DNA of 19,163 nucleotides, from assembly GCA_042218075.1 (NCBI GenBank), contig JBDGRK010000002.1, positions 1 to 19,163 on the forward strand, in the 5' to 3' direction. This stretch comes from Candidatus Nanohaloarchaea archaeon (GTDB lineage: Archaea > Nanohalarchaeota > Nanosalinia > Nanosalinales > Nanosalinaceae). The translations under genes and the position numbers were made by a program. Within the stretch, counting starts at the first letter, position 1; each line of letters opens with the position of its first letter. Shown piece by piece: positions 1 through 19,163 of the stretch. Under the pieces are notes generated by a model. It was not told where the DNA came from, did not search any database, and saw only the letters and a program-made list of their open reading frames with translations.

Positions 1-2
1 CA

Positions 3-1634
3 AGCGAGGATGTAGCCCGTTTCAAGAACGGCGGGAGTGTTGAAATCCCGAACGGCAACCTGAGGGTTGACAAAGCAGTCGAGTTGAGTGATATGGGATT
101 CGGTAATTCCTGGGGAGGTATCAAGAACAAGGATGTGGCGGATTCTGACTACGCCCTCCTCCAGAAGGATAATGGACAGACGCTGATTAATACAGATGGA
201 GGTAATTTCATCAAATTCAAGGAGGATGACAGTACAGTTCGGATGAGTTTAGACGCAAACAATAATGTTGAAATCCCGAACGGCAACCTTGACATGAGTG
301 GGAACGATTTGAAGAATGTCGATGATGTCAAGAACTTTACCGCTACAAACATGTTCAGGAACGGGGATATAGAGGATTCTCATACCTCTAATTTTGGAGG
401 TGATGCCTATAGAACCAGCAATGAAGCCTATAAGGGAACATATTCTATGGTCGGCGGAGATTCAGATTTCGGTCAATACGTTGGTGCTTGGATTGTGAGA
501 GACCATACAACTGGGGAATTCAAAGAGAACGAGTCTTACACGCTATACTATTACGCTAAGAATACTGATGACAATGAAAGAACTTATGGATTTGCAGGGT
601 GCGGTGGCATGGCGGTACATACTATACCAGCCAACTCTGGCTGGCAACTCTATAGGGAGACGTTCCAGATTCCTGAAAACTGTGGTTATCCGTCAGCAGG
701 AAAAGGAGAGACTAGGTTCCAGGTGAGAGATTCCCACACATGGAATGGAAAGGTTTACTTTGACAATATTGTTTTGGTGAAAGGGGAAACAAAACAGGAT
801 GAATTCCTGCCACACCCTCAGGACCCTATAGATAATGGGGCAAGTCTTGACTTAAGCGAGTCCGAACTACAGAACGTGGACGGTATCCAGGATGGGAGTG
901 GTACGAACACAATCCATTTCGACGGCAGTAATAATGTTGACATCCCGAACGGCAACCTTAAGGTTGCAGGTAGTGCTGGGACTTCCTCAACTACGTCAGG
1001 GCTGACGATTGATGGTCAGCGGAATGTAGAGTTTCTGACCAGTGGATCCAGGGATTTCCGCCTGTACAACCATGGGGGAAGGATTACATTTGAAGACAGT
1101 GATGAGGAGTTGCTGGATATAAATGAGAACGGCCCTGTTGAAATCCCGAACGGCAACCTTAATCTTGGGTCGTTCCCGCAGCCGGGCAGTGATTCCATGT
1201 GCTGGGACGGCTCCGGGGCTTCGAACATCGGGGACTGCTCCTCTCTGCGCAAGTACAAGAATAACATCACCGACCTCGGCCTCGGTCTGGAGACGGTGAA
1301 CGCGATGCAGCCGCGGCGCTTCGTATGGGATAAGAACATGAGCGGTGAGGAGGACATCGGGTTTGTGGCGGAAGAAGTCGAAAACGTCAACCCGATCATC
1401 GCGGATTACAACGGTGACAACCTGAGCGGTGTCAAGTACCGGCAGTACACCGCCGTCCTCACCAACGCGGTGCAGACACTCGACGACAGAAACGAAGAAC
1501 TGAAACAGGAGAACAAGGAGCAAGAGGAAAGAATAAGTGAGCTGGAATCGGAGATGGAAGAGCTGGAGAGGGAAAACGAGAAGATGAAGGAAGTGCTGTG
1601 TGAGATGAAGCCGGGAGCCGAGTTCTGCGGTTGA
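3..1634 (+). CDS. 5'-truncated modular fibre/adhesin-like protein with a CBM4/9-like domain, C-terminal peptidase S74 (intramolecular chaperone) domain and coiled coil
   Basis: The frame is open from nt 3 (SEDVARFKNGGSVEIPNGNL...), so the true start lies upstream of the window and 84 is not the start. The S74-type signature SSLRKYKNNI..L..V..MQP..F.W....DIGFVAEEV..V.P..........GVKY..Y...L..AVQ lies at about 1239-1480, followed by a heptad coiled coil. The segment NMFRNGDIE...YTLYYYAK...GWQLYRETF...VYFDNIVLVKG (about 348-785) resembles CBM4/9 jelly-roll domains. Confidence 0.85.
   Translation, partial: SEDVARFKNGGSVEIPNGNLRVDKAVELSDMGFGNSWGGIKNKDVADSDYALLQKDNGQTLINTDGGNFIKFKEDDSTVRMSLDANNNVEIPNGNLDMSGNDLKNVDDVKNFTATNMFRNGDIEDSHTSNFGGDAYRTSNEAYKGTYSMVGGDSDFGQYVGAWIVRDHTTGEFKENESYTLYYYAKNTDDNERTYGFAGCGGMAVHTIPANSGWQLYRETFQIPENCGYPSAGKGETRFQVRDSHTWNGKVYFDNIVLVKGETKQDEFLPHPQDPIDNGASLDLSESELQNVDGIQDGSGTNTIHFDGSNNVDIPNGNLKVAGSAGTSSTTSGLTIDGQRNVEFLTSGSRDFRLYNHGGRITFEDSDEELLDINENGPVEIPNGNLNLGSFPQPGSDSMCWDGSGASNIGDCSSLRKYKNNITDLGLGLETVNAMQPRRFVWDKNMSGEEDIGFVAEEVENVNPIIADYNGDNLSGVKYRQYTAVLTNAVQTLDDRNEELKQENKEQEERISELESEMEELERENEKMKEVLCEMKPGAEFCG
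38..61 (+). repeat. In-frame 24-nt module-junction repeat, copy 1 (TGTTGAAATCCCGAACGGCAACCT; VEIPNGNL)
   Basis: Identical to 266-289 and 1136-1159; one mismatch to 935-958. Confidence 0.95.
266..289 (+). repeat. In-frame 24-nt module-junction repeat, copy 2
   Basis: TGTTGAAATCCCGAACGGCAACCT read directly. Confidence 0.95.
935..958 (+). repeat. In-frame 24-nt module-junction repeat, copy 3 (one mismatch; VDIPNGNL)
   Basis: TGTTGACATCCCGAACGGCAACCT read directly; it also shares the upstream AATAA with copy 2. Confidence 0.95.
1136..1159 (+). repeat. In-frame 24-nt module-junction repeat, copy 4 (precedes the S74 module)
   Basis: TGTTGAAATCCCGAACGGCAACCT read directly. Confidence 0.95.
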
Positions 1635-2077
1635 GGTTTACCGTATTGACATAAAACCAGCGATGACAGAACCAAAGACCATCGCGAAAATGCAGACCGC
1701 ATGTTGAGAGGATTAAAAACCGAGTTTATACTTCCTGTCCAAGATCCACCTGATTTCCTTCGATTCCGGGACGAGTCCAGAACCTATCTAGGCCGAGATC
1801 CCTCCACCTCAAGCCGGATAAGAACCATTTCCAGGAACTAGAAGATAGAAAATCAAGCGAATCCGGAACAGCGTTTCTTCATATGACGCCGTCAACTTCT
1901 ACTCGTGCCAGGACCGCCTGACGTTTGACACGTCAAAACCACGTGATTTCCAGGAGATTTGGAAGAGAGATGATCGAGTCGCTCCGGGCTTTTGATTTTA
2001 TCTTTGGCAGGATGTCGTTTGCGTGTATAATCCATGGAAAGCGGATGGAGGTAACATAGGAGAGGAGTAACAGGGTT

Positions 2078-3412
2078 TTAGAGTAGGTCCTCTACATTTT
2101 TGAGTTCTGTGTCTTGTTGCTTGAGTTGTTCTGTGAACCCGTTTCTTGAGAATATGATGTATTCGGTTTTCCTCTGGCTGTTTTTCCATTCCACTTTTTC
2201 TGACTTTTCCCGGAGTTTTTCCAGAGTCTTTCTTCCTGCTGGCTGTGAGGTCCATTTGCATTCTCCGAGCAGTAGCCTGTTCTGTCTATGGTTCACTGCT
2301 GCAACATCGATTTCGTTTTCCTGGTACCACCATGATCCAACTTTCTCGTATTCTTTTGTCTGTCTTACATGGCTCCGGCAGATGTCTTCGAACGGCCTTG
2401 ATACGTACCGGTCTAGCTCGGGTTTGATCTTGTTTTGGAGCACGTTTTCGGTGTTCTGTTCTAGCTCTGTCCGGTTGGGGAAGATGTATCGGAACCAGAA
2501 TCTGAAGTAGTTGTCTTTGATCCGGTATCTTCCTCTTTTGCTCTTTTCTGAGGCGGTCACAGGCAGTCTTTTCTGGATTATATGGAGGTTCTGAAGTGTT
2601 TTCAGGTATTTGCTTACGCTGTTCTGAGGTATGCCTGTTTCGTTTTTGATCTCGTTAAACTTTGTTTTACCTCTTGCTACTGCTTTAAGTATTGAGAAGT
2701 AATTTTTAGGTTCTCTCAGTTCTTGCTGGAGCAGTCCTTCTGCTTCCTCCCTCAGCACCGACCCTTTTTTCAGTATGTGCTGGTGTATGTTCTCGGGTAG
2801 CCTGATTTCCGGGTTGAACTGTTCAAGGTAGTAAGGTGTGCCTCCCAGGATTGCGTAGGTTCTTATTATGTCTTCCTTGCTGTAATCTGGTAGGAACGGA
2901 GATATCTGGTTGTATTCAAAGGGTTTCAGGTGCCACTGTCCTGTTCTCCTACCGTATAGAGGGCTTTCGTATCCCAGGACTTTTGATTCCATCATGCTGA
3001 TAGATGAGCCTGTAAGCACCATGTTTGTGTCTTTCTGTTTCATTTCCTCATCCCATGTTTTCTGGAGTATTTTCAGTATTTCCTCGTCCGTTTCTATCAG
3101 GTACGGGAATTCATCGATCACTACAGTTTTGCAGTTTTCTGCCGTGAACCGGAGAACGGGTTCCCAGTCATTTCTGATATCCTCTATACCAGGGTATTTC
3201 TGGCCTATGCTCTGTTTGAATTCCTGTATCTGGTCTTTTTCAGATTCTCTGGAAACAAGGTGGTATATTCCCTTTGTTTCCTGGAGAACCTTTTTCATCA
3301 GCCTTGATTTACCTACTCTTCTACGGCCGTAAAGTGCTATAAACTCTGCTTGATCGGAGCCCAGCTTTTCTCTAAAGAATTTTAGCTCTTCTTTTCTATT
3401 ATGGAACTTCAT
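2078..3412 (-). CDS. Archaeal AAA-type ATPase (ATPase_2 + wHTH + DUF234 PD-(D/E)XK-like C-terminus)
   Basis: N-terminal FHNRKEEL, Walker A YGRRRVGKS, Walker B VVIDEFPYL, LTGSS, SPLYGR, GGTPYYL, DNYFRFWFRYI, and the C-terminal WW...EIDVAAV...LGECKW. Confidence 0.93.
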   Translation of the reverse strand: MKFHNRKEELKFFREKLGSDQAEFIALYGRRRVGKSRLMKKVLQETKGIYHLVSRESEKDQIQEFKQSIGQKYPGIEDIRNDWEPVLRFTAENCKTVVIDEFPYLIETDEEILKILQKTWDEEMKQKDTNMVLTGSSISMMESKVLGYESPLYGRRTGQWHLKPFEYNQISPFLPDYSKEDIIRTYAILGGTPYYLEQFNPEIRLPENIHQHILKKGSVLREEAEGLLQQELREPKNYFSILKAVARGKTKFNEIKNETGIPQNSVSKYLKTLQNLHIIQKRLPVTASEKSKRGRYRIKDNYFRFWFRYIFPNRTELEQNTENVLQNKIKPELDRYVSRPFEDICRSHVRQTKEYEKVGSWWYQENEIDVAAVNHRQNRLLLGECKWTSQPAGRKTLEKLREKSEKVEWKNSQRKTEYIIFSRNGFTEQLKQQDTELKNVEDLL

Positions 3413-3432
3413 ACTTTGAGTTTAACAGCCGG

Positions 3433-3465
3433 ATTTAAAATGATACTTGTAAGTATGATACTTGT
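3433..3465 (-). promoter_or_regulatory. TATA-like box (TTTTAAAT) plus two 15-nt-period direct repeats (ATGATACTTGT) upstream of ATPase 1
   Basis: ATGATACTTGT occurs at 3440-3450 and 3455-3465, and the pair contains the dyad ATACTT-GT-AAGTAT. The TATA-like box is about 21-29 nt upstream of the ATG at 3412. Confidence 0.6.
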
Positions 3466-3526
3466 GAGAATTATATTTCCTTATGCCTGATGATCTTACA
3501 GAGAGTTGGTAAAAGCATTCGATAGA

Positions 3527-3619
3527 GCCATTATTGCCGCTCAGCACGAGGTCATGAGGGGCCAGCAGCAGGAGATTGATGATTTGAAGGAGAGGGTCAG
3601 GAAACTTGAGAATAACTGA
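3527..3619 (+). pseudogene. Remnant B: orphan 3' end of a probable S74/fibre-type gene (AIIAAQHEVMRGQQQEIDDLKERVRKLENN*)
   Basis: Resembles the QQ.EI..LK.R...LE coiled coil that typically ends S74 domains. There is no intact 5' part. 3555-3610 is repeated at 4371-4426. Confidence 0.6.
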
Positions 3620-3671
3620 AGTTTTTGATCATGACATTATTGATTTAACTTCTGTCACACAAACCGGTGTC

Positions 3672-4034
3672 ATGATGGAGGATGGAAATGAGTGGCTGGA
3701 AAGGGCTGAAAGTGATTTTGATGATGCAACCTATAATCTGGATGATGATAGGTATGCTCCTGGTTTGTTCTTTCTCCAGCAGGCGGCTGAAAAAGCCTTG
3801 AAAGCTGTCGTGGTGGGTAGTGGTGAAGAGCCGAGTTACACTCACAACCTTCTCAGGCTGGCAGAGGAGGCCGGTCTTCCGGATGAAAAGACGAATTATT
3901 TCGCCGAGTTGAATAATCTTTACACTGGAGTAAGGTATCCGGGCAAAGAGTTTGGAGATGTGGAAAATATTGGTGATATGAGAAAATCCGTCAGGGAGGT
4001 GTTAGAATGGACGAGAAAACAGTTGAAAAAGTAG
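3672..4034 (+). CDS. HEPN domain protein (HEPN-MNT pair 1)
   Basis: WLERAESDF..A...........FFLQQAAEKALKA......THNLLRL....L...Y...RYP. ATG 3672 is preferred over 3606 because a TATA-like TTTAAC lies at about 3644-3649 and 3606 falls within remnant B. Confidence 0.9.
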   Translation: MMEDGNEWLERAESDFDDATYNLDDDRYAPGLFFLQQAAEKALKAVVVGSGEEPSYTHNLLRLAEEAGLPDEKTNYFAELNNLYTGVRYPGKEFGDVENIGDMRKSVREVLEWTRKQLKK

Positions 4035-4333
4035 GAGAAACAATAAGATCTATTGCTGAAGATGAAGCTATTAAAATTGATGAACTGATGATATTCGGCT
4101 CACGTGCCAGAAACGATTACACAGAGGATAGCGATGTGGATGTTGTTCTGGTCTCAGAAGATTTCAGGAATGTAAAGTGGTACGAGAGAGGTATGAAATT
4201 CCAGAGAGACTGGGATTATGGAAATTTACCTGATCCGGAAATAATCTGCCTGACTCCAGAAGAGTTCGATGAAAGAAGAAAGAAACTTGGGGATATTGTC
4301 AAGAGAGCAGTACAGGAAGGCATAGAGATATAG
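4007..4333 (+). CDS. Minimal nucleotidyltransferase (MNT) of pair 1
   Basis: IFGSRARNDYTEDSDVDVVLVS matches GSX10DXD; the gene overlaps the HEPN 3' end. Confidence 0.92.
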   Translation: MDEKTVEKVGETIRSIAEDEAIKIDELMIFGSRARNDYTEDSDVDVVLVSEDFRNVKWYERGMKFQRDWDYGNLPDPEIICLTPEEFDERRKKLGDIVKRAVQEGIEI

Positions 4334-4370
4334 GTTTTAATCAGTTATCCGTTTAAATTGGATTAGGTCT

Positions 4371-4426
4371 TGAGGGACCAGCAGCAGGAGATTGATGATT
4401 TGAAGGAGAGGGTCAGAAAATTGGAG
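4371..4426 (+). repeat. Remnant B': direct repeat of 3555-3610 (RDQQQEIDDLKERVRKLE)
   Basis: 45/46 identity for 3555-3600 versus 4371-4416, and 52/56 over the full length. Confidence 0.92.
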
Positions 4427-4602
4427 GAGATCGAAGAGTTTGAACAGAAACATGCCATGAGCTTCGAAGAATTCAAAGAAAAATGGGAGAACGGTGAAAT
4501 AGAGGGAAAGTATTCCTACGATGTCGAAAGCGATTTCTGGGAGTGGGGGGTCTGGTTACCCGGAAGCAGAGGATTCAGGAAGGGCTTGAGAAGATTGGCT
4601 GA
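4427..4602 (+). pseudogene. 5'-truncated, frameshifted small antitoxin-like gene (...FEQKHAMSFEEFKEKWENGEI..YSYDVESDFWEW/EGLVTRKQRIQEGLEKIG*)
   Basis: Resembles archaeal small proteins with the KYGMSFEEF...D..EWE pattern. Adding one base in the G6 run at 4545-4550 gives a stop at 4600-4602, just before the next ATG at 4608. The N-terminus is replaced by remnant B'. Confidence 0.5.
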
Positions 4603-4607
4603 TATTT

Positions 4608-4787
4608 ATGGATGCTGAGGATTTTGCTTCCAGGATAATTGATCTGGCGGCTGAATATGATTTTATCGAAGATTACAGTATTGATATAAGGGAAGAGGTC
4701 GTTCTGGATTCCAGAATTGATCTGGAGCAGGGTTCTGCGGTTGAGGTTCATTCCAAGACCGTGCGTGGTATACTTATCCAGTCATGA
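4608..4787 (+). pseudogene. 3'-truncated partner gene, possibly a DUF6516-like toxin N-terminus (MDAEDFASRIIDLAAEYDFIEDYSIDIREEVVLDSRIDLEQG...)
   Basis: A 59-aa ORF, below the ORF-track cutoff, interrupted at about 4732 by remnant A'. The family guess rests on recalled resemblance only. Confidence 0.4.
4732..4748 (+). repeat. Remnant A': 17-nt exact copy of the fibre gene stop region (GTTCTGCGGTTGAGGTT)
   Basis: Identical to 1622-1638; the 13-nt core also occurs at 6406-6418. Confidence 0.85.
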
Positions 4788-4803
4788 AGATAACATTATT
4801 CAA

Positions 4804-4844
4804 ACTATGTTAGTTGAGACTATGTTAGCTAAAACTATTTAAGT
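4804..4844 (+). promoter_or_regulatory. Three 15-nt-period direct repeats (ACTATGTTAG x2, ACTATTTAAG) overlapping the TATA-like box of ATPase 2
   Basis: Copies start at 4804, 4819 and 4834. TATTTAAGT at 4836-4844 is 22-30 nt upstream of the ATG at 4866. Confidence 0.65.
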
Positions 4845-4865
4845 GTGGATGTTTTCAATTCAAGT

Positions 4866-6245
4866 ATGGAAAAGTTTGTGGACAGGGATGAAGAGCTTGA
4901 CAGGCTCAGAGCCCTATTTGACTCGGATAAGGCCGAGCTGGCGGTCATCTACGGTAGAAGACGGATAGGAAAGACAGGCCTGGTAACCGAGGCAGTAGAG
5001 GAAAGGGATAACACGGTCTACTACCAGGCCATCGAAACCACGAAGAAAGACCAGATAGAAAGCTTCATAGCTTCAGCCGGAGACAGTTTTCCAGAAGTTG
5101 AAAACTTGAAGCAGGAATGGGAGCCAATCCTGAAACATCTCATAAAGGAAGATGCTACCATCATACTTGACGAATTCCCCTATCTAGTGGATTCAGATGA
5201 AAGTCTACCTTCTAAACTACAGAGGATATGGGATCACGAGACAGATGACTCAAAAGCAAAACTAGTCCTAACAGGTTCTTCGATTGGAATGATGTATGAT
5301 ATCGCATTAGAAGGAGGATCCCCACTCTACGGCAGGGTTTCACAGAACCCGAACGGAGAGTTTTCAATCAGCCAGCTCCCTTTCACAGCTGCAACAGAGT
5401 TCTTCCAGGACTACAGCTATGAGGAAAAGGTGCTGGCGTTCAGTATTTTCGGGGGAACACCCCACTATCTCAACGCAATCAAACCGGAGAAAAGCATAGC
5501 GGAAAACGTCCAGGAAACCATTATCTCCCAGAGCGGAGGTCTCCATAACGAACCGGAGACAGTTCTCCGAATGGAACTGGAAGAGGTAAACCGGTACTTC
5601 GCCACGCTGAAATCCCTGGCCAGGGGAAACCGGTCTAGAAATGAAATCATAAACGAAACAGGTATAGACCAGTCCAGCGCAGGTTACTACCTTGACAGGC
5701 TCGAAAAACTGCACATCATACAGAAAGACCACCCGGTAACAGAAGACCCGCGGAAATCGAGGAAAACACGTTACCGGATAAGAGACCAGTTCTTCAGGTT
5801 CTGGTTCAGATTCGTATACGGCCAGACCACAAGATACAACCTCTACGGAGAAAAAGCCTACCAAGAGTTTATAGAGCCCGAGTTAGCAGATTTCTCGAGC
5901 GATAGTTTTGAAGAGCTATGCCATAAAGCCTCGTTAAAACTTCACCCTGACCTCAAATTCAGGAAGATAGGCCGATGGTGGAGAAAGGAGAGGGAAATAG
6001 ATGTTGTTGGATTAACCGACTCAGATGAAATACTTGTAGGAGAAGCCAAATTCACATCCTCTCCACTAGGTTACGACACTCTCTCCAGGCTGGAAGAAGA
6101 CGCAGAACACCTTAACATCGAAAAAGAAAAACGATACGCACTTTTCTCCAGAAACGGCTTCAAGGAATCAGTGAAAGAAGCCGATAATGAAAGAGAAAAC
6201 CTGTATCTCCACAACCTGGAAGAGATACTTGATTCAATGTCTTGA
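4866..6245 (+). CDS. Archaeal AAA-type ATPase (ATPase_2 + wHTH + DUF234), paralogue 2
   Basis: MEKFVDRDEEL, YGRRRIGKT, IILDEFPYL, LTGSS, SPLYGR, GGTPHYL, DQFFRFWFRFV and WW...EIDVVGL...VGEAKF. ATG 4866 is preferred over GTG 4845. Confidence 0.93.
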   Translation: MEKFVDRDEELDRLRALFDSDKAELAVIYGRRRIGKTGLVTEAVEERDNTVYYQAIETTKKDQIESFIASAGDSFPEVENLKQEWEPILKHLIKEDATIILDEFPYLVDSDESLPSKLQRIWDHETDDSKAKLVLTGSSIGMMYDIALEGGSPLYGRVSQNPNGEFSISQLPFTAATEFFQDYSYEEKVLAFSIFGGTPHYLNAIKPEKSIAENVQETIISQSGGLHNEPETVLRMELEEVNRYFATLKSLARGNRSRNEIINETGIDQSSAGYYLDRLEKLHIIQKDHPVTEDPRKSRKTRYRIRDQFFRFWFRFVYGQTTRYNLYGEKAYQEFIEPELADFSSDSFEELCHKASLKLHPDLKFRKIGRWWRKEREIDVVGLTDSDEILVGEAKFTSSPLGYDTLSRLEEDAEHLNIEKEKRYALFSRNGFKESVKEADNERENLYLHNLEEILDSMS

Positions 6246-6246
6246 A

Positions 6247-6418
6247 TGCGGCGCGAAAACACCGAACAATCAGAACGGATCGAAAAGCTGGAAGAAGAGA
6301 ACGAGCGGTTTAAAAAAAGTGCTGCACACCGTCGCTCTCCGAGGACGGTATTCGAGCACCGACCAAGCTGGTCGGTGCGCTCTGCGAGATGAAGCCGGAA
6401 GCAGAGTTCTGCGGTTGA
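6247..6418 (+). pseudogene. Remnant A'': degenerate copy of the fibre gene 3' end, interrupted by a 55-nt double-hairpin insert
   Basis: Reads RRENTEQSERIEKLEEENERF/KKVL...LCEMKPEAEFCG*, compared with KQENKEQEERISELE...ERENEKMKEVLCEMKPGAEFCG* in the intact gene. The frameshift is around the A7 run at about 6312-6318. Confidence 0.88.
6325..6379. repeat. Small palindromic (REP/MITE-like) insert with two hairpins
   Basis: ACCGTC(G)CTC-TCC-GAG-GACGGT at 6328-6349, and the perfect 10-bp stem GCACCGACCA-AGC-TGGTCGGTGC at 6356-6378. Confidence 0.6.
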
Positions 6419-6464
6419 AGAAGTCGGGAAAACTGATTTATTATTAGGCTGATCGTTGTTTTTT

Positions 6465-6824
6465 ATGTCGGATTCTGATCTGTGGCTTGAAAAAGCGGAA
6501 GATGATCTTGATGCGGCAGGATACATGAGAGAGGGAGGTATGTTCTCTCAAGCTGCTTTCCTATACCAGCAGGCTGCGGAGAAAGTTTTGAAGGCGGTAC
6601 TTGTTGAAAAAGGAGAGGGTCTTTTCCAGAGCCATGACTGTTTTATACTGGCTAAGAAGGCGGGAGCTTCGGAAGAAGTTAAGGAGGCCGGGAACAGTAT
6701 CTCGCCTTATTACTTCAGGACTCGTTATCCTGATGCTGACCTGGTTGACCTGGAAAAATCAGAGATTGATAGTGTAGCTTCTTCTGCGGAGGCGATCTTT
6801 GAATGGGCCAGAGAGAGACTTTAG
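6465..6824 (+). CDS. HEPN domain protein (HEPN-MNT pair 2)
   Basis: WLEKAEDDLDAA.......AAFLYQQAAEKVLKA......SHDC..L.....YFRTRYPD. ATG 6465 has a TATA-like TTTATTA about 25 nt upstream. Confidence 0.9.
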   Translation: MSDSDLWLEKAEDDLDAAGYMREGGMFSQAAFLYQQAAEKVLKAVLVEKGEGLFQSHDCFILAKKAGASEEVKEAGNSISPYYFRTRYPDADLVDLEKSEIDSVASSAEAIFEWARERL

Positions 6825-7114
6825 AAAAGATAAAGCAAAAACTGGAGGGAAAAATCGTCATAGATGAAATTTATCTTTTCGGTTCCAGAGCAAAAGGCAC
6901 ATATAATCGTAGCTCAGACCTTGATATCGCGATTGTTTCGGAAAGCTTTAGAGACATGAGCAAAACAGAGAGGTATCACTACGTTATAAATGAAGTAAGA
7001 GAGGTAACGGGTGATACTCCTGTTGATGTCCTCTGTTATACTTCGAGTGAGTTTGAAAGAGGCAGTGATTCTTTCCTTCCTTCGATTATTCAGGACGAAG
7101 GTATCTCAGTATAG
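6803..7114 (+). CDS. Minimal nucleotidyltransferase (MNT) of pair 2
   Basis: YLFGSRAKGTYNRSSDLDIAIVSESF...PVDVLCYT..EF; the gene overlaps the HEPN 3' end. Confidence 0.92.
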   Translation: MGQRETLEKIKQKLEGKIVIDEIYLFGSRAKGTYNRSSDLDIAIVSESFRDMSKTERYHYVINEVREVTGDTPVDVLCYTSSEFERGSDSFLPSIIQDEGISV

Positions 7115-7259
7115 TTGAGGATTCCGTTTATGACTCTACGACAGATTCTGTATCTGAACCTTGAAGGCCGTCTGTGAGGTAGAACTCTGCCTCCTGTTTG
7201 GTGGTGTCTCCTTCATCGATTCTTGAGGACTGGGATGTTTCTGCTTGAGACTCTTTATA

Positions 7260-7563
7260 GACAGGTACGGCTACGGTATCAATGATAAGATTCCTCACCA
7301 GGTCCGGCACATCCCTTTGCTGGCGGCTCACCAGCACGAACTCCAGAAGCACGATGAGAGGATTTCAATGCTACAGAACACGACCGATAAAAGAGCCGGA
7401 AAACTGGAGGTAAGCCACCAAGAGAGAACAGTAACAATCAATGACACCCTGAAGCTCGAGAAGACCTCTCTGTTCCTGCACAGAGGAAGAGGCGGGAGAG
7501 ATCAGGTTCAACGGTTCGGCGCATTTCGCGTGTGACGGAGAGTCGTGGAGCAGGATGTACTAG
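7260..7563 (+). pseudogene. Remnant C: frameshifted orphan 3' end of another fibre/surface protein gene
   Basis: Reads YGYGINDKIPHQVRHIPLLAAHQHELQKHDERISMLQN...TVTINDTLKLEKTSL, then a frameshift at about 7472, then SCTEEEAGEIRFNGSAHFACDGESWSRMY* (TAG at 7561-7563). The C...AG.IR.N.....C.G..W pattern resembles fibre/adhesin linker motifs. Confidence 0.6.
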
Positions 7564-7632
7564 ATCCCTCTGAAGTCTCAGTGGAAGTTCTACCGGTTTG
7601 TGAGAGCAAGTTTTCACACTAGTGAGGAAGAT

Positions 7633-8397
7633 TCAGTCTGTTCCAGGTAGTTTTTCTTCCAGTTTCTCCAGGGATTCCTCGAACGCAGGTGGTGAAGAAT
7701 ATGTGAGTGTTTCCAGTGTTTCCCAGTTTTTCTCGAGCTTCCCAGCCTCCTTAATTATCATCTCCCTGCTGTATTCAAGGCTGTAGTATTCAAGTTTTTC
7801 CTTCACCAGCTCGGTGTCGATTTCAGTTCCCATCGCCAGCAGGTGGTATAAGTCGTAGAGGTCGCGGGGCTGGCTTCTCGTCACCAGCGCCCTTATCTTC
7901 TCCGCCAGTATCTCTTCCCTGTCAAGCACCAGTACTTCAAAGCTGGTGATATCCCGGAATTTCGGGTTGTACCTCCTGTTCCGGAAGTTCGAGGCCGTGC
8001 TTTTCCTGTTGATCTCTATCCTGATGAAGTTGAGGCTTCTCCTGTTGCCAGTGTAAAGCGGCCCCTGGATTCCAAGCCTGGCTCTGTAACTGCTATCTTT
8101 CTCATCTTCCTTCCTCTCTGCAACTTCAGCTCCATAGTTCTCCAGATCCCTGGCGATTTTATCTACCAGTTCTTCAAACTTGATTTCCTGGCGCATCGTA
8201 AAGTCGAGGTCTTCCGAGAACCGGTCAAGCTGGTAGAACTTCAGCAGTGCGGTTCCACCCTTGAATACCAGTTGTTCTGATGTCTCCTTACTTATAGTGG
8301 AAAGTATTATGTCCTGCAGGTAGAGTTTTTCGGCGTATCCCCTGTTTCCTCCTGTCAGCGTTTTCGACATGCTCTCTAACTCCTTTTCAGAGAGCAT
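7633..8397 (-). CDS. abiEii: AbiEii-family nucleotidyltransferase toxin (type IV TA)
   Basis: EKLYLQ..IL, LVFKGGTAL.......RFSEDLDF, EEILAEKIRAL..R.QPRDLYDL. Confidence 0.92.
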   Translation of the reverse strand: MLSEKELESMSKTLTGGNRGYAEKLYLQDIILSTISKETSEQLVFKGGTALLKFYQLDRFSEDLDFTMRQEIKFEELVDKIARDLENYGAEVAERKEDEKDSSYRARLGIQGPLYTGNRRSLNFIRIEINRKSTASNFRNRRYNPKFRDITSFEVLVLDREEILAEKIRALVTRSQPRDLYDLYHLLAMGTEIDTELVKEKLEYYSLEYSREMIIKEAGKLEKNWETLETLTYSSPPAFEESLEKLEEKLPGTD

Positions 8398-9058
8398 CGG
8401 TGTTCACCAGTACCATCCAGTCAGGATTTTTCTCTCCCTCTGCGGGCTGTGAAAGCTCGAGCGGAGTGTAATTTGTGTCCTCCACCATGAACTCCTCCAC
8501 TTCCTCGTCCCTCAATTTTTCGAACAGAAATCCCAGCCGTTTCTTCACGGATTTCTTGCCTGTTCTCTCCGCAAGTTCCACCAGTTTATCTATTTCCACT
8601 TCTTCAACCAGTTCGATCAGCTCCGATACAGCCACCTGTTTTCGACTCAGGCAGTCTATAAGCAGTTTCTCTTTCTCCGCCATGAATATCTCTATTCCCT
8701 TGTACCTTTTCTTCTTGTATCCGAACATGTCCTGGGTGTAATAGAACCTGATGTTGTCAAGGTCTTTCCTGTCAACCGGAGTCATTACATCAATCTTCCG
8801 TGGCGTCTGAGTCGTCAGGTCGTAGTAGCGTAGTCCGGACCAGAGGGAGATGTAGGAGGGCTTTTCTATGTGGGATGCGTAGATCAGGGGGTCATCATGT
8901 AAGGTGTACTTGTTTCGCTCGATCCTCTTCAGATCCCCTTTCTGGACCGCTCTCTGGATCTTTGTTTTCAGGTAGCTCCTGTCCTCTTTCAGCTGTCTCT
9001 GCGCTTCATTCAAATTGAATAGGGGTTTTTCCCTCCCCCAGTCCTTGATCTCTCCCAT
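8387..9058 (-). CDS. abiEi: AbiEi-family antitoxin / transcriptional regulator (type IV TA)
   Basis: N-terminal wHTH (G.LKRIERNKY), PSYISLWSGLRYYDLTTQTP, AEKEKLLIDCL and KRLGFL; it overlaps abiEii by 11 nt. Confidence 0.88.
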   Translation of the reverse strand: MGEIKDWGREKPLFNLNEAQRQLKEDRSYLKTKIQRAVQKGDLKRIERNKYTLHDDPLIYASHIEKPSYISLWSGLRYYDLTTQTPRKIDVMTPVDRKDLDNIRFYYTQDMFGYKKKRYKGIEIFMAEKEKLLIDCLSRKQVAVSELIELVEEVEIDKLVELAERTGKKSVKKRLGFLFEKLRDEEVEEFMVEDTNYTPLELSQPAEGEKNPDWMVLVNTDAL

Positions 9059-9066
9059 AACACGTT

Positions 9067-9128
9067 TTTCTTATCTTTTCCCTTTAAAGTTATCATTTTT
9101 GATCATTTTCTGGGGAAAAAGTAAGAAA
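9067..9128 (-). promoter_or_regulatory. Inverted repeat (16-nt arms, 14/16 match) flanking the TATA-like box of abiE; putative AbiEi operator
   Basis: TTTCTTATCTTTTCCC (9067-9082) and GGGAAAAAGTAAGAAA (9113-9128), with CTTTAAAG at 9082-9089, about 25-30 nt upstream of the ATG at 9058. Confidence 0.6.
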
Positions 9129-9142
9129 TCTGAAGCTGGCTT

Positions 9143-9215
9143 CTTGAAGCTTGAGAAGACCTATCTCAACTCCTGTAAAGAGGAAGAGGCGAGGGAGATC
9201 AGGTTCAACGGTTCC
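9143..9215 (+). repeat. Remnant C': diverged direct repeat of 7449-7517 (LKLEKTYLNSCKEEEAREIRFNGS)
   Basis: The blocks TGAAGCT.GAGAAGACCT.TCT, AGAGGAAGAGGCG and GAGATCAGGTTCAACGGTTC are shared. It ends flush against the pilin stop codon at 9216. Confidence 0.88.
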
Positions 9216-9644
9216 TCACTGCTTGGTCTCTACGCTCCTGTCTCTCTCCATTTCAGGACAGTTCGATGAAGCAATTACCACCTTACCAGGAGTCTTGTTT
9301 GAGTCAAGTGTAACGTTTCTCTCCTCGTCTACCTCCAGAAGCTCAACCTCCTTTGTGTTCAGTATCCTGGAGTTGTTGATCGATGCAACAGTAAGATCTT
9401 CCTCGAAGTTGATGGTTCCTGTGTTGAGCACGGTAACCCTGGTAAAGTTGGCGGAGAAGTCGTATTTTGCTCTCTTGATCGAGAAGCCGGCGTTCCTGCA
9501 TTCTATCTTCCTGTTTTCCTGTTCCGCGACACTTGAAGTCACGTTCCTGGAGAACTCCGGCGCCCAGCTTGCATAGACTGAGGCCATGGACATCCCAACA
9601 AGAAGTATCAGCGTTGCTGTTATTATCTGGGATATTCCTTTCAT
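9216..9644 (-). CDS. Archaeal type IV pilin-like protein (divergent or minor pilin)
   Basis: Class III signal peptide MKG/ISQIITATLILLVGMSMA; IEC..A...V.NTG...SNCPE pattern shared with the neighbouring pilins. Confidence 0.85.
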   Translation of the reverse strand: MKGISQIITATLILLVGMSMASVYASWAPEFSRNVTSSVAEQENRKIECRNAGFSIKRAKYDFSANFTRVTVLNTGTINFEEDLTVASINNSRILNTKEVELLEVDEERNVTLDSNKTPGKVVIASSNCPEMERDRSVETKQ

Positions 9645-9648
9645 GCTT

Positions 9649-10107
9649 CTACGTGTTGATGTTTTCTATTGTGTCGGTCACTTCGCTGCACTTGCTTGAG
9701 TACGCCTCGATGTAGGAAGGCTCGGAACTTACCCCGCTGATGTTGGTCTCGTTGACAGGGTTCTCCACGAGGTATTCCAGGTTTCCGATCTGTTCTATTA
9801 TTTTGTCATCCGAGTCGTATGTCGCTATAATTACATCCGTGAGGTTTACGGGCCCCGTGTTTCTTACAGTTATGACAGTGTAGTTTTCTCCTCCCGGGTT
9901 GTTTCCGTTGTAGAAGGCCGACCTGAGTTTGATTCCTGCCCGGTTACAGTCTATGGTTTCCAGTGTGTTGTTTTTTGTGTCTTCTGTTACTGTTTGGACT
10001 AGGTTTGGTGCCCATCCTGAGAATATTCCGACTACTGCTAGTGCTACTGCAAGTAATAGAATTGAGGCTATTATCGGTGATATCCCTTTCCTCTCCATGT
10101 GTGCCAT
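9649..10107 (-). CDS. Archaeal type IV pilin (paralogue 2)
   Basis: RKG/ISPIIASILLLAVALAVVGIF class III signal peptide; the start could also be 10098. Confidence 0.9.
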   Translation of the reverse strand: MAHMERKGISPIIASILLLAVALAVVGIFSGWAPNLVQTVTEDTKNNTLETIDCNRAGIKLRSAFYNGNNPGGENYTVITVRNTGPVNLTDVIIATYDSDDKIIEQIGNLEYLVENPVNETNISGVSSEPSYIEAYSSKCSEVTDTIENINT

Positions 10108-10144
10108 TTTTCTCTCACCCTTTAATTATTTTCCTCAGTCATGT

Positions 10145-10582
10145 TCAGGTATTTATATCGTTGAGTTCATCGTTCACTTCGCTGCACTTGCTTGAGTACG
10201 CCTCGATGTAGGAAGGCTCGGAACTTACCCCGCTGATGTTGGTCTGGTTTACGGGCTGGCTGACGTTGTAGTTAAGGTTACCGTCCTGCTCAATTATTTT
10301 ATCATCGGAACTGTAGGAGGCTATCACAACGTCTGTTAGGTTTACCGGACCTGTGTTTCTCAAAGTTACGACCATGTAGTTGTCGCCTGAGTTGTAGAAA
10401 GCCGACATCAGCCTTATACCCGCTTCATTGCATTCAACGGTTTCCATGGTGTTATTTCTTGTATCCTCTGTAATCGTGTTCACCAGGTTTGGTGCCCATC
10501 CTGAGAATATTCCGACTACTGCTAGTGCTACTGCGAGTAGAAGGACGGATGCTATGATCGGTGATATCCCCTTCCTGGCCAT
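10145..10582 (-). CDS. Archaeal type IV pilin (paralogue 1)
   Basis: MARKG/ISPIIASVLLLAVALAVVGIF class III signal peptide. Confidence 0.9.
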   Translation of the reverse strand: MARKGISPIIASVLLLAVALAVVGIFSGWAPNLVNTITEDTRNNTMETVECNEAGIRLMSAFYNSGDNYMVVTLRNTGPVNLTDVVIASYSSDDKIIEQDGNLNYNVSQPVNQTNISGVSSEPSYIEAYSSKCSEVNDELNDINT

Positions 10583-10615
10583 ATCGCCATAATGTTGATC
10601 TCTGTTTATAATAGT

Positions 10616-11827
10616 TTAGAGGAAGAATGTGATCGCCAGGTATCCTGCGGCGAAAAGGATGGCCATGTGCTTGAATCCTGCCCTGAGTTCTCCCTCTGCC
10701 AGCTTGCCTATGATCAGTCCGGAGAAAAATGCCTGTATGTAGACCAGTCTCTGGAACCACTTGTTGTAGAGCCTTATGTTTTCCTGCAGGTTGGCGCCCC
10801 CTCCCCCGAGCACCGAAAAACTACCTGAACCTCCCAGTGCATCCTGTGCTGATGCAAGATTCGGGAGAAGGAACTGCGTCAGTGCGATAAGAATGCCGAT
10901 AAAGATGAAGAATACGATGTAGCCCGTAATCATCTCGCCGTAGAGCTGTGACTCCCTCTTCTCCTTCAGCTCCCTTATAGTCCTTATATTCTCCCCCACA
11001 GAATCCAGGACGTCCTGGATGTTACCTCCCGAGGAGTAGGCCTGTATGATGGTATCGACGCTTCTCTCTATTAATGGCGAACCTGTCTGTGAGCTGAAGT
11101 TTTTCAGCACTTTCTCGAACGGGATGCCCCAGTCAAGCTGGGCGTTCATCTGTTCTATCTTAGGATCCAGAGCACCATAGCTGCCTGTCTCAGTGTTCTT
11201 GATGGCCTGGGGTAGTGACATACCTGCCCTAGTTCCCTCCACCACATCCCTCAGGAATTCCGGGAACTTCTCCTCCATGTCCTTCTTTGCCTGGAACTCG
11301 GTGTACTTCAGGTACATGACCGGTGCCGCAACAAGCAGAAGAGATACCATGTTCAGCAGAACGAAAACCAGCTGCTGGAAGCTTGTCTTCGATTTTACTT
11401 TTACGTATGTGAGCGCTTGCTGCTCAATGCCGAGTCCTGTGCTCTCTATAACAACCCTGTTATTCTTCTCCACCAGATCTTCCGGAACCTTCACCAGCTT
11501 TGAACTCGAGCTTGATTCGGATATCTCGTTTCCATTTACCTCTATGGTTACCGGGTTCTCGGGATCAACGTTCTCGAATTCCAGGTTAAGTTTCGGGCTC
11601 TGCGAGACTGAGGGCCTTGAAATCGTGAAGTTGAATTCCGCGGCGCTACTGCTGTTGATGGGTTTTCTCACCGAGCTCTCGTACTTGTTAATCGTATTCT
11701 GGTGGTTGACGTAGTTCAGCCCTGCTATCGTCACTCCGAGGACAAAGGCTCCCGCCACCATCAGGATCAGATTCTCGTGTTTCCTCCAGTAGTTCTTCAG
11801 CTTCAGCTTGATGTTTCTCGTATACAT
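10616..11827 (-). CDS. TadC/PilC-like (T2SS F domain) pilus platform protein with an extra N-terminal hydrophilic domain
   Basis: EEKFPEFLRDVVEGTRAGMSLPQAI......YGAL......LDWGIPFEKVL...SGG.I.DVL; C-terminal QAFFSGLIIGKL.EG...AGFKH. Confidence 0.88.
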   Translation of the reverse strand: MYTRNIKLKLKNYWRKHENLILMVAGAFVLGVTIAGLNYVNHQNTINKYESSVRKPINSSSAAEFNFTISRPSVSQSPKLNLEFENVDPENPVTIEVNGNEISESSSSSKLVKVPEDLVEKNNRVVIESTGLGIEQQALTYVKVKSKTSFQQLVFVLLNMVSLLLVAAPVMYLKYTEFQAKKDMEEKFPEFLRDVVEGTRAGMSLPQAIKNTETGSYGALDPKIEQMNAQLDWGIPFEKVLKNFSSQTGSPLIERSVDTIIQAYSSGGNIQDVLDSVGENIRTIRELKEKRESQLYGEMITGYIVFFIFIGILIALTQFLLPNLASAQDALGGSGSFSVLGGGGANLQENIRLYNKWFQRLVYIQAFFSGLIIGKLAEGELRAGFKHMAILFAAGYLAITFFL

Positions 11828-11828
11828 T

Positions 11829-12752
11829 CTAGTCCACCATCACCGCAAGGAATATAACGAAAAGGCCGTTTATGACCGGTATAAATACGTGTACGCCGAG
11901 CCACATCAGGTCCCTGATAGCGAACCCTCCGATTTGGCCTCCCAGCAGGTTCATGACCGCCAGTACCACCACTAGGAAGACAGGCGCGGCAATCAGTATC
12001 GCGGTGTAGAATGATGCGTAGGTGCTCAGCTTCTGGATTTCCCTCTGTCTCTGCTGGTTGTACTCGAAGAGTGCTTCATCAGCCTTCTCCTGTATGTAGG
12101 ATTTAAGGTCTCCTCCTGTCTCCACCGTCGATATTATCCCGTAGAGGACCTCCGACCAGTCCTCGCTCGGGCTTTTATCCGCCACCTCTTTCAGCGCGGT
12201 GGTCAGATCCTCGCCGAATACATTCACTCTCCTCGAGATCTCTCCCGCCTCCCTCGAGATTCCACCGTACTCCTCGAAAGTGTTCAGGAGTTCAAACATC
12301 GATTTGGGCGGTATTCCTGAAGTCGCGATCGCACCGAGGTGGTTGAGCGCGAACGGAAGATTGTCGTTAATACTTTCTCTCCTCCTCTTAGCCTTCTGAG
12401 ACGGGTAAATGTACATGAAACCGAATACGACAAGGGACATGGCGACAGGCACCCCTATCACGTACCTTACAGTTCCAAGTACGCCGAGACTGTTGGAGTA
12501 AGCATAATAGCCCCCTATAACTATGCCCATGAAGAAAGCGGTCGAGCTGTAGAGGAATATTTTTGAAACGTAGGTCCTGTAGAGAACGTCCATATCAGCC
12601 TCTCTCAGGTCCTGCTTCAGGTCTTCAAAATTTTCGCTGTACCTGTCGACTGTTGGGCCGAACAGCGCATTCGCCGCTGCCTCGACGGTTTCAGTCTTCG
12701 AGGAGTGCTTAAGCCTGTCCCTGAAGCTCTTGTTGAAGGGGTCGTGGCTCAT
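11829..12752 (-). CDS. TadC/PilC-like (T2SS F domain) pilus platform protein
   Basis: INDNLPFALNHLGAIATSGIPP...YGGISREA..I...VNVFGEDL..AL....PS..W...L.G....ETGGDL..Y; multiple TM segments. Confidence 0.9.
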   Translation of the reverse strand: MSHDPFNKSFRDRLKHSSKTETVEAAANALFGPTVDRYSENFEDLKQDLREADMDVLYRTYVSKIFLYSSTAFFMGIVIGGYYAYSNSLGVLGTVRYVIGVPVAMSLVVFGFMYIYPSQKAKRRRESINDNLPFALNHLGAIATSGIPPKSMFELLNTFEEYGGISREAGEISRRVNVFGEDLTTALKEVADKSPSEDWSEVLYGIISTVETGGDLKSYIQEKADEALFEYNQQRQREIQKLSTYASFYTAILIAAPVFLVVVLAVMNLLGGQIGGFAIRDLMWLGVHVFIPVINGLFVIFLAVMVD

Positions 12753-13393
12753 TGGACCTTCAGTCCTTTCGAGTCCAGGCTGTAGTTGTGGACGTTCTGG
12801 TTGTAATCTGATCCTTTCAGCTTTCTGATGTAAAGCTTTCTCTGCACCTCTTTTCCGTCCTCCTCAACTATCATATCTACTATGCCATCGGCTATCTCTT
12901 CCTCTATCGATGTTGCCTCCCCTGTCTCGGCCAGCATTAGCGCTGTGGCTTCTGAGTTTCTCACTTCTTTCTTTATAGATAGCAGAGTTTTCCTGATGTC
13001 TTTCCTTGAATCTATGTAAAGATCCAGATCTGTTATAGGATCCAGGACTATCCTTTCGGCCTCGTTGACTTTAATCATGCCTCTCAGCATGTCAGCAACT
13101 TCTTCATACCTGTAAGCATTCATTTTTCTTATATTGATTGTCCCGGATTCAACGTATTCCTCGAAATCCCAGTCAAAGGTGGTCGTCCTGAGTATTTCAT
13201 CCTCTGTCTCCTGGAAAGATACGAAAAGGCCATTTTGATCTTCCATAGCACCCCTGTAAAGAAACTCTATTCCAAAGTTCGTCTTCCCGGCTCCCGGTTC
13301 TCCTTCAATCAGTACTGTCTCTCCATGAGGTATTCCTCCCTCGATCTGGTTGTCAAAGTTTCTTATACCTGTCTCTATCCTCTGCATCTTCAC
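12749..13393 (-). CDS. KaiC/RecA-superfamily single-domain ATPase (ArlH-like)
   Basis: RIETGI..FD..IEGGIP, Walker A GEPGAGKT, RIVLDP, ADGIV, R.L.IRKLKGS; 4-nt overlaps with both neighbours. Confidence 0.88.
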   Translation of the reverse strand: MKMQRIETGIRNFDNQIEGGIPHGETVLIEGEPGAGKTNFGIEFLYRGAMEDQNGLFVSFQETEDEILRTTTFDWDFEEYVESGTINIRKMNAYRYEEVADMLRGMIKVNEAERIVLDPITDLDLYIDSRKDIRKTLLSIKKEVRNSEATALMLAETGEATSIEEEIADGIVDMIVEEDGKEVQRKLYIRKLKGSDYNQNVHNYSLDSKGLKVQ

Positions 13394-16887: not shown

Positions 16888-16922
16888 AGCTGGAATCTAT
16901 TTGTATAGCTTCGTTAATAATG

Positions 16923-17066
16923 TGTAGGTAAATCTACATCTCCTCCAGAGGCTCAACTCCTGGGCGGAGTCGTGGAAACTCTTTTCAGAGTTTCACTCGT
17001 CGCAGTAAAATCCGGCAGGTATTTTCTACGAGTTGGCGCGCCGAGATCATTCGCCTGAAGCGAATG
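16923..17066. other. Multi-hairpin intergenic element between argS and the pilus ATPase
   Basis: Stems: ACTCC/GGAGT (16956-16970), GAAACTCT/AGAGTTTC (16975-16994), ACTCGT..AAAAT/ATTTT..ACGAGT (16995-17033), GGCGCGCC (17035-17042) and CATTCGC/GCGAATG (17048-17066). Confidence 0.5.
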
Positions 17067-17076
17067 CACTTTAAGA

Positions 17077-18894: not shown

Positions 18895-19027
18895 AATTCA
18901 GTCTTCACCTCTGAAGTTTATTATAGTGAATCTAGTCTGAGAGGATTCAAACCAACTGGCAGGCGATCCAGTTGGAAGATCTTTTTGGTTTCTTGTTCAT
19001 TGTTGTCTAATTTTGAAAAGTTATATT

Positions 19028-19125
19028 CGAGTCCGGAGGGATTTGAACCCTCGACAACAGGATGTCTTTTGATATTGGAAGGTCAGTAGAAGTCCTGCAC
19101 TCTGTCCGGGCTGAGCTACAGGCTC
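19028..19125 (-). tRNA. tRNA-Arg(TCT) with a 23-nt canonical-position (37/38) intron at 19064-19086; CCA not encoded
   Basis: Reverse complement: GAGCCTG TA GCTC AGCCCGGACA GAGT G CAGGA CT TCT A [CTGACCTTCCAATATCAAAAGAC] A TCCTG TTGTC GAGGG TTCAAAT CCCTC CGGACTC G. The anticodon is at 19088-19090, the Arg identity element A20 is present, and there is a relaxed BHB. Confidence 0.93.
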
Positions 19126-19163
19126 TGATAGTGAGCTATATCAGGATTAGAGTTAAACAATTT

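Follow-up and report, generated by a model that had tools for sequence, protein, structure and literature searches.

A 24-nt repeat in a nanohaloarchaeal fiber-like gene is probably a shaft-unit joint whose copies were homogenized by gene conversion

Main finding

Nanohaloarchaea spend their lives attached to haloarchaea, and their means of host recognition are poorly understood. Contig C12 (JBDGRK010000002.1) of a Candidatus Nanohaloarchaea archaeon opens inside a gene for a fiber-like surface protein, the 3′ part of which contains four copies of a repeat of 24 nucleotides (nt), TGTTGAMATCCCGAACGGCAACCT, encoding the peptide VEIPNGNL. The stretch analyzed here (the window) comprises bases 1-19163 of this contig, which belongs to a 1.10 Mb draft genome (G000) of 40 contigs that is 92% complete. 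The reading which we prefer, with a probability of about 0.6, is that VEIPNGNL is the joint between the shaft units of a trimeric protein resembling phage fibers, and that its copies in this gene were homogenized recently by short-tract gene conversion.

In mechanistic terms the 24-mer would encode the core of a boundary motif between shaft units in a cell-encoded nanohaloarchaeal surface protein, the units of which would carry a β-sandwich resembling a carbohydrate-binding module (CBM), probably for glycans on the host surface. By analogy with other members of the family, the S74 intramolecular chaperone and a coiled coil would trimerize the fiber, after which they would be cleaved off. Gene conversion among the copies (concerted evolution), proceeding by ordinary homologous recombination, would have rendered them identical, and no dedicated site or recombinase would take part. 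The trimer, the adhesin role, and gene conversion as the cause are what we infer from these data. The first-pass annotation of this DNA had proposed a recombination joint that lets adhesin modules be added, deleted, or exchanged; of this proposal the hints of crossover at the motif survive, namely forks in the assembly graph and shared segments that end close to it, but no dedicated system was found. No new mechanism is needed to explain the DNA repeat by itself, which is a familiar kind of element found in a new host.

Repeat copies in the C12 fiber gene

A search for TGTTGAMATCCCGAACGGCAACCT tolerating up to three mismatches returned exactly four matches, starting at positions 38, 266, 935, and 1136, all on the plus strand and with no mismatches, while none of 200 dinucleotide-preserving shuffles contained a match to the pattern; the four in-frame copies noted earlier are thus confirmed. 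They are spaced 228, 669, and 201 nt apart, each a multiple of 3, and share one frame of the open reading frame (ORF) 3-1634, which is open at the contig start. The codons for Val, Ile, Pro, Asn, Gly, and Asn are the same in all four copies; copy 3 carries GAC (Asp) in place of the GAA (Glu) of the others and therefore reads VDIPNGNL rather than VEIPNGNL. Under the codon usage of the genome (607 ORFs of at least 200 amino acids (aa)), the probability of six codons agreeing in four copies is about 1.8e-8. Codon bias does not account for this identity, and the statement that it goes beyond what selection on the protein would produce holds good inside the C12 gene.

Outside the 24 letters, the identity between copies falls at once to background. 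Because the flanks of the copies are unrelated, recent duplication of whole modules is not the source of the identity. The intervening segments had been described as largely unrelated, which is fair at the sequence level, but the third of them matches a hidden Markov model (HMM) of the interiors of 18 related units with 12.0 bits (maximum for 200 shuffles, 9.0 bits); the first segment scores 4.2 bits, which is within the shuffle range.

The residues preceding the four copies are S, N, N, and P, and each of their codons ends in T. This wobble base had been taken as a signal; it is none, as 41 of 79 copies in the clade have a T immediately before the motif. The weak folding ascribed to the repeat is likewise no better than that of shuffled sequences (−1.4 kcal/mol; z = 0.11), 93 of 200 of which fold equally well or better. 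No inverted partners of the repeat were found in the window, all copies being direct; Tandem Repeats Finder detected no array, and Rfam no RNA family in the fiber gene.

The motif as a unit boundary

VEIPNGNL is the conserved core of a longer boundary motif, [FVIL]-x-x-G-G-N-V-E-I-P-N-G-N-L-[DN]-[MVIL], in which conservation extends to G (−2) and N (−1) on one side of the core and to D/N (+8) and a hydrophobic residue (+9) on the other. With a relaxed peptide pattern, 15 of the 18 matches in the genome fall in eight fiber-like frames, one each on contigs C10 and C12 and two each on C25, C30, and C36; one of the eight carries S74. Several of the frames begin with a signal-peptide-like sequence and vary in their C-terminal ends; the paralogues are mosaics of shared segments, with DNA identities of 68-85%. 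The 24-mer itself is confined to fiber genes, with no occurrence outside fiber frames in the genome. Fiber genes make up three of the contig ends of the draft; a third fiber-like gene (C30, bases 1-993, minus strand) runs off its contig end, though not at a VEIPNGNL motif.

In the order as a whole, the pattern V-x-[IV]-P-N-G-[ND]-L is present at 58 sites in 16 of 70 genomes and gave no matches in the control. A total of 91 motif instances lie in 39 fiber-like ORFs, and the 13 ORFs with at least three instances hold three to nine each. Twenty units of 50-80 aa can be aligned with the motif at both ends and interiors that are barely alike; in the fiber-like ORFs, conserved short motifs alternate with variable segments. 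Since this is a protein repeat with the motif as unit boundary, the common frame and the multiple-of-3 spacing need no special cause. Records carrying the exact 23-mer are those of Candidatus Nanohalobium and of Nanohaloarchaea metagenome-assembled genomes (MAGs); IMG/VR and the JGI metagenome contigs yielded no match to it.

Spelling of the motif and age of the copies

Letter-for-letter identity is peculiar to the C12 gene rather than inherent in the motif. Elsewhere in this genome, VEIPNGNL at C30:699 and at C36:7768 differs in each case at two or more synonymous sites, and five VEIPNG[DN]L-like copies are also spelled differently, as are 13 of 17 VEIPNGNL sites in the other 69 genomes of the order. 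Every synonymous codon of Val, Ile, Pro, and Gly is used at the motif somewhere in the clade. The repeat is thus not DNA-invariant in general, as the first-pass annotation had implied. Codon identity between motif copies, compared with the C12 gene and the copy at the end of C25 left out, is 0.446 within an ORF, 0.443 between ORFs of a genome, and 0.411 between genomes; the corresponding value for the C12 gene is 0.933, and for the next highest ORF 0.714.

The nearest relative in a search of 1.8 billion representatives is P0018 (1403 aa; E 3e-105), which is collinear with residues 73-409 at 45% identity through the end of unit 1, a motif, the CBM module, a motif, unit 3, and a motif. At the places of copies 2, 3, and 4 it has VEVPNGDL, VKVPNGNL, and VQVPNGKV. 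Motif copies of P0018 differ even in protein, and therefore the identity in the C12 gene is young; to judge from the alignment, the three motif copies would predate a split deep enough to saturate synonymous sites. Past copy 4, the C12 gene enters S74 and P0018 carries on with more units. A search of metagenome contigs with P0018 yielded no relative, and no close orthologue of the fiber gene was found in the species genomes searched; the best non-own match among 49 family genomes (E 8e-17) covers residues 278-415, and the best in 70 genomes of the phylum is a lone CBM-like module.

Module order, which was compared with P0018 and between two near-identical samples only, agrees between runs X1 and X2, which come from two studies, and is collinear with P0018, so that shuffling of modules between strains, as once proposed, is not seen as far as it can be checked.

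Gene conversion and the points against it

Recent homogenization, most likely by short-tract gene conversion, is the simplest reading of old copies that are letter-identical only in the C12 gene. Several observations weigh against it. Gene conversion was deduced rather than directly observed, and homologous exchange would have had to act on a tract of 24 nt between unrelated flanks, which is very short. In relatives it is evidently rare, codon identity within ORFs being no higher than between them. The 21-mer spelling is found in four of 17 copies against 0.88 expected from the codon usage of the motif itself (permutation P 0.002, with small counts and relatives that are not independent). These copies belong to three other genera (G032 and G029, one each; G066, two), and passive conversion within one gene does not explain a spelling that recurs in other genera. 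The exact runs are sharply bounded, most often starting with the Val codon's first base and stopping at the CT of the Leu codon. At both contig ends that carry the repeat, the assembly graph forks within it or where it ends, which fits crossover. Lastly, the predicted local distance difference test (pLDDT) score of the AlphaFold2 monomer is below 50 for residues 1-78 and 320-375, and the model holds no confident shaft-unit structure.

Among 3664 cross-genome pairs of motifs, 58 share at least 20 nt, the longest exact run being 51 nt. The exact cross-genome runs are confined to the motif, and therefore do not stem from recent transfer of larger pieces.

Alternative explanations

The alternative that survives best, unlikely as we consider it, is that motif DNA acts, and may be kept alike, as a short crossover linker through which ordinary homologous recombination exchanges shaft units, binding modules, and C-terminal ends among paralogues, strains, and even genera; identity within the C12 gene would then be both the trace and the enabler of exchange. 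Ordinary homologous exchange at the motif is plausible, and the conserved motifs of the T-even phages may serve as a precedent. If it occurs, the host range of these symbionts could shift by module swapping.

In both X1 and X2, a contig terminates within copy 1, at window base 55, and its successor begins at base 26. Of the two, the upstream one is deeper (33 vs 16.2 in X1; 20.3 vs 6.12 in X2), contig depth being a weak measure; together with the fork this suggests one upstream part with several continuations, which first differ at base 56, the wobble position of the Gly codon. The contigs of X1 and X2 were presumably built from 31-letter words. In C12 the first 55-mer ends at base 55, the same base as the X1 and X2 contigs, and on the minus strand of C25 the first 55-mer ends exactly at the last base of a fifth exact repeat copy. 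Depth spikes at the repeat show only that many other contigs share the motif. Twelve contig joints within the gene, the sides of which comprise 20-34 letters at 85% likeness, are indistinguishable from cross-matches between repeats, and with sides of this length and likeness they were not read as deletions or reorderings.

In the relatives, 6 of 15 shared segments (at least 88% identity over at least 80 nt) end no more than 9 nt from a motif copy, and C10 and C36_4718, alike at 85% over 233 nt, diverge within the motif; but the motif is the unit boundary and the most conserved stretch, and similarity would end there under any mechanism. The 21-mer spelling is shared by four genera as islands, yet there is no general excess of shared spelling within genes or within genomes. 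After copy 4 the C12 gene and P0018 part company, whereas module order has otherwise been stable over that deep split and is identical in two samples. One mosaic boundary lies away from the motif: record 18 of sample X3, a contig of 719 nt, is identical to window 1233-1411 (the S74 region), and its 540 nt upstream are unlike the window. Going by this contig, the chaperone end of the window gene may also sit on another fiber in a third sample.

Contig C25 harbors a second, diverged fiber 3′ end, which starts at the motif and lies behind an inserted toxin-antitoxin pair, and this too would fit crossover. The fiber gene in question (L005; minus strand, ~8391-9376) ends in NVEIPNGNLNMTQNNITAQGGGNEMCIGDECA and a stop codon. 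Next come a DUF433 gene and a DUF5615/PIN-like gene, together forming the toxin-antitoxin pair. The second copy of the 3′ end shows 87% identity over 101 nt and begins just before the motif. Displaced in this way, it looks like the "orphan" tips found behind Rhs or CDI toxin genes.

A narrower version, which we regard as less likely again, holds that the 21-23-mer spelling of VEIPNGN(L) is kept at the DNA level across genera as a common crossover "plug" for the exchange of shaft units, glycan-binding modules, and chaperone ends between fiber genes, strains, and genera through homologous recombination. The five exact copies in the genome, the forks in the graph, and the displaced C25 3′ end would be traces of such exchange, and, if this were true, host-dependent archaea would possess a cassette-exchange system for host attachment.

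Codon selection for translational accuracy or speed at an invariant structural turn could in principle hold a favored spelling with no recent event at all, a proposition we consider improbable. Compared with the remainder of the same ORFs, the motif does favor certain codons (CCG 62% vs 38%; GGC 58% vs 28%; GAA 73% vs 52%; AAC 77% vs 66%), and this bias may reflect codon selection at the turn, without giving linkage between codons. Given that the exact 21-mer makes up 4 of 17 VEIPNGN copies outside this genome, the chance of four out of four is approximately 0.003, which is not negligible when 13 ORFs with at least three copies were looked at. ARAGORN found only 12 tRNAs. Against codon selection, all synonymous codons occur at each motif position in the clade, exact and divergent spellings coexist within the single genome G066, the matching copies of P0018 differ even at the protein level, and synonymous sites should be saturated at 45% protein identity.

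Dedicated site-specific recombination, in the form of a shufflon-, integron-, or CRISPR-like array inside a protein, is very improbable. All that speaks for it is the repeat itself, with its sharply bounded 24-nt identity, in frame, between dissimilar segments. The copies are direct only, such that recombination between them could merely delete modules; the 24-mer folds no better than its shuffles; other copies of the motif are spelled differently; and the assembly holds no array of silent cassettes. The absence of a recombinase from the window, remarked upon in the first-pass annotation, is confirmed among the 18 window ORFs scanned. A recombinase co-occurring with the fiber genes was not found either: on the evidence of this 40-contig draft, the four PF00589 matches are on C13, C16, C37, and C19 and none on C10, C12, C25, C30, or C36, and the 92% complete genome has no PF00239 match. 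A CRISPR-like array in particular was rejected in view of the irregular spacings (201-669 nt), the position of the copies inside one ORF, and the presence of the 24-mer in fiber frames only.

An assembly artifact in which modules were misjoined through the short repeat, as might be suspected in a 40-contig draft with two contig ends at the repeat, has next to no likelihood, as each of the 32 overlaps listed between contig ends measures exactly 55 nt and hence exceeds the repeat of 24 nt, and independent contigs, which cover 26-293 and 264-2600 (X1) and 26-293, 415-1082, and 1061-2059 (X2), show one synonymous difference from the window, at base 1133.

Comparison with known systems

In its workings the repeat would come closest to the recombination at conserved motifs known from the adhesin genes of T-even phages. 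Passages on T-even gp38 (PMC3157838) describe glycine-rich conserved motifs, crossovers at which can yield chimeras without a dedicated enzyme. As far as those passages go, the common feature is a host-recognition protein whose hypervariable segments are set apart by short, strongly conserved motifs. Unlike the T-even case, the host is an archaeal cell, and the motif bounds whole shaft units and a CBM-like domain rather than the loops of a single domain; moreover, exchange takes place at the T-even motifs, whereas in the window gene it is only hinted at. The His boxes of T-even gp37 are reportedly a further case of conserved-motif recombination, said to have been described by Tetart in 1998.

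A second parallel is provided by the mosaic adhesive trimer (MAT) fibers of Bdellovibrio bacteriovorus, which passages of PMC10769870 describe as cell-encoded and phage-like, with S74 and non-S74 subfamilies. From what these passages relate, both systems involve a host-dependent cell, a trimeric family resembling phage fibers, mosaic and varied binding modules, and S74 on some members. As in the MAT superfamily, several paralogous fiber genes with and without S74 occur in one cellular genome. The passages on MAT do not describe a VEIPNGNL unit, and the organism of the window is an archaeon. No MAT chain is among the PDB sequence matches at E up to 1, and there is no sequence link beyond S74. 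The window presents part of a cell-encoded, phage-fiber-like family with a glycan-binding-type module, chaperone ends, and a mosaic make-up, the archaeal counterpart of the chimeric fibers which Bdellovibrio uses on its prey. A search of the literature for this fiber family, the motif peptides, or S74 fibers in Nanohaloarchaea or DPANN found no paper.

The C-terminus resembles the endosialidase-type S74 domains of phage tail spikes and fibers, matching PF13884 above the cut-off. Unlike phage S74 genes, this gene has chromosomal surroundings, its contig also carrying toxin-antitoxin genes, a type IV pilus locus, and an arginyl-tRNA synthetase gene. A provirus origin was rejected on the strength of the synthetase and the pilus locus; because the contig carries other chromosomal genes, the fiber gene is chromosomal and not viral.

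In shufflons the Rci recombinase acts on inverted sfx sites beside its own gene, and the attC sites of integrons fold as hairpins. The window gene resembles both in that short repeats border exchangeable adhesin ends or cassettes. It differs from the shufflon in that the repeats are direct, all on the plus strand, and have no adjacent tyrosine recombinase, and from the integron in that the 24-mer has no hairpin and no integrase with attI is present in the window or on the fiber contigs. The integron-, shufflon-, or CRISPR-like system of the first-pass annotation is not supported, in view of the direct repeats, the lack of a hairpin, the lack of a recombinase on the fiber contigs, and the varying spellings.

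In the antigenic variation of vlsE, direct repeats flank the cassette, and in-frame short conserved repeats guide conversion. In-frame short DNA repeats that flank variable segments of a surface protein are also what the window gene displays, but unlike vlsE there is no array of silent cassettes in the assembly, the sole candidate being the displaced C25 3′ end. The other motif-bearing frames which reach a 5′ end have signal-peptide-like starts of their own; the draft is fragmented at such genes.

Structure of the gene and its product

The features of the fiber gene are listed in Table 1.

Table 1. Features of the fiber-like gene at the start of contig C12 (window coordinates).
Feature	Position	Strand	Remarks
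3′ part (543 codons) of fiber-like surface protein gene	3-1634	+	5′ end cut by contig start
Repeat copy 1 (xxT GTT GAA ATC CCG AAC GGC AAC CT; VEIPNGNL)	38-61	+	Includes base 55, the end point of contigs from two runs
Shaft unit 1 interior (76-aa unit)	62-265	+	Aligns with 19 other 50-80 aa units only via end motifs; HMM 4.2 bits
Repeat copy 2	266-289	+	24-mer match
Module 2 (223-aa unit) with inserted globular domain	290-934	+	Collinear with P0018, 45% identity
CBM-like β-sandwich, aa ~115-265, likely glycan-binding part	345-797	+	AlphaFold2 blocks mostly pLDDT >90; Foldseek
Repeat copy 3 (GAC for GAA: VDIPNGNL)	935-958	+	24-mer match
Shaft unit 3 interior (67-aa unit)	959-1135	+	HMM 12.0 bits; in trimer interface of model
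Repeat copy 4, 11 codons upstream of chaperone domain	1136-1159	+	24-mer match
Peptidase_S74 intramolecular chaperone domain, residues 416-464	1248-1394	+	PF13884
C-terminal long helix (coiled coil), aa 479-535	1437-1607	+	AlphaFold2 model; trimer contacts

That this is a modular fiber gene with an S74 end, as first suggested, is borne out by PF13884, which matches the C-terminus with 27.8 bits (cut-off 22), and with 31.8 bits in a second scan; it is the sole S74 match in the genome. The stretch GDCSSLRKYKNNI, a candidate for the catalytic Ser and Lys of self-cleavage, is kept in homologues P0002-P0004. The S74 part also gives a weak match (E 0.014) to the long tail fiber distal subunit 6f45.

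The AlphaFold2 monomer model has a mean pLDDT of 67.9, its confident regions being the β-sandwich (residues ~115-265) and the S74 part together with the long helix (~420-543). For the β-sandwich, the best Foldseek matches are to CBM16, CBM22, and CBM4 (top match 3oea_A; E 2.5e-6; TM 0.66 on target), and there is a weak Pfam match to CBM_4_9 (E 0.35). When residues 296-543 were modeled in three copies, a score of 0.84 was obtained against 0.00 for the best of three controls; this mark is attained by 20 of 30 proteins whose solved structure is a pair of one chain, compared with 1 of 23 proteins with a single-chain structure. Between runs, at least 83% of contacts agree, with a partner pLDDT of at least 80, and the interface of the predicted trimer includes residues 308-325 and 373-390, which correspond to motif copies 3 and 4. 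Likeness of the S74 part to solved trimers may account for that share of the model's success.

The CBM-like module is also encountered outside this family. A 49%-identical copy is part of a non-fiber protein at locus L048 (G052:C5:26001-28285) in another MAG of the order, on a contig with 67-68% G+C that is possibly host-like or contaminant DNA. Proteins of other architectures (P0019-P0021 among the entries) contain it as well, indicating that the module moves between scaffolds.

Genomic neighborhood

Directly downstream of the fiber gene, window 2078-9058 contains a defense-type island, consisting of two tandem ATPase_2/DUF234 sets, each followed by HEPN and nucleotidyltransferase genes, and then AbiEii/AbiEi. 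The minus strand of 13390-16887 encodes a PilB/T2SSE-type ATPase of the type IV pilus locus, interrupted by an intein with LAGLIDADG and helix-turn-helix domains; the Intein_splicing match spans residues 307-823. At 19028-19125 (minus strand) is a tRNA gene of 98 nt which matches a model of 71 positions and for which ARAGORN reports a four-letter anticodon; it probably contains an intron.

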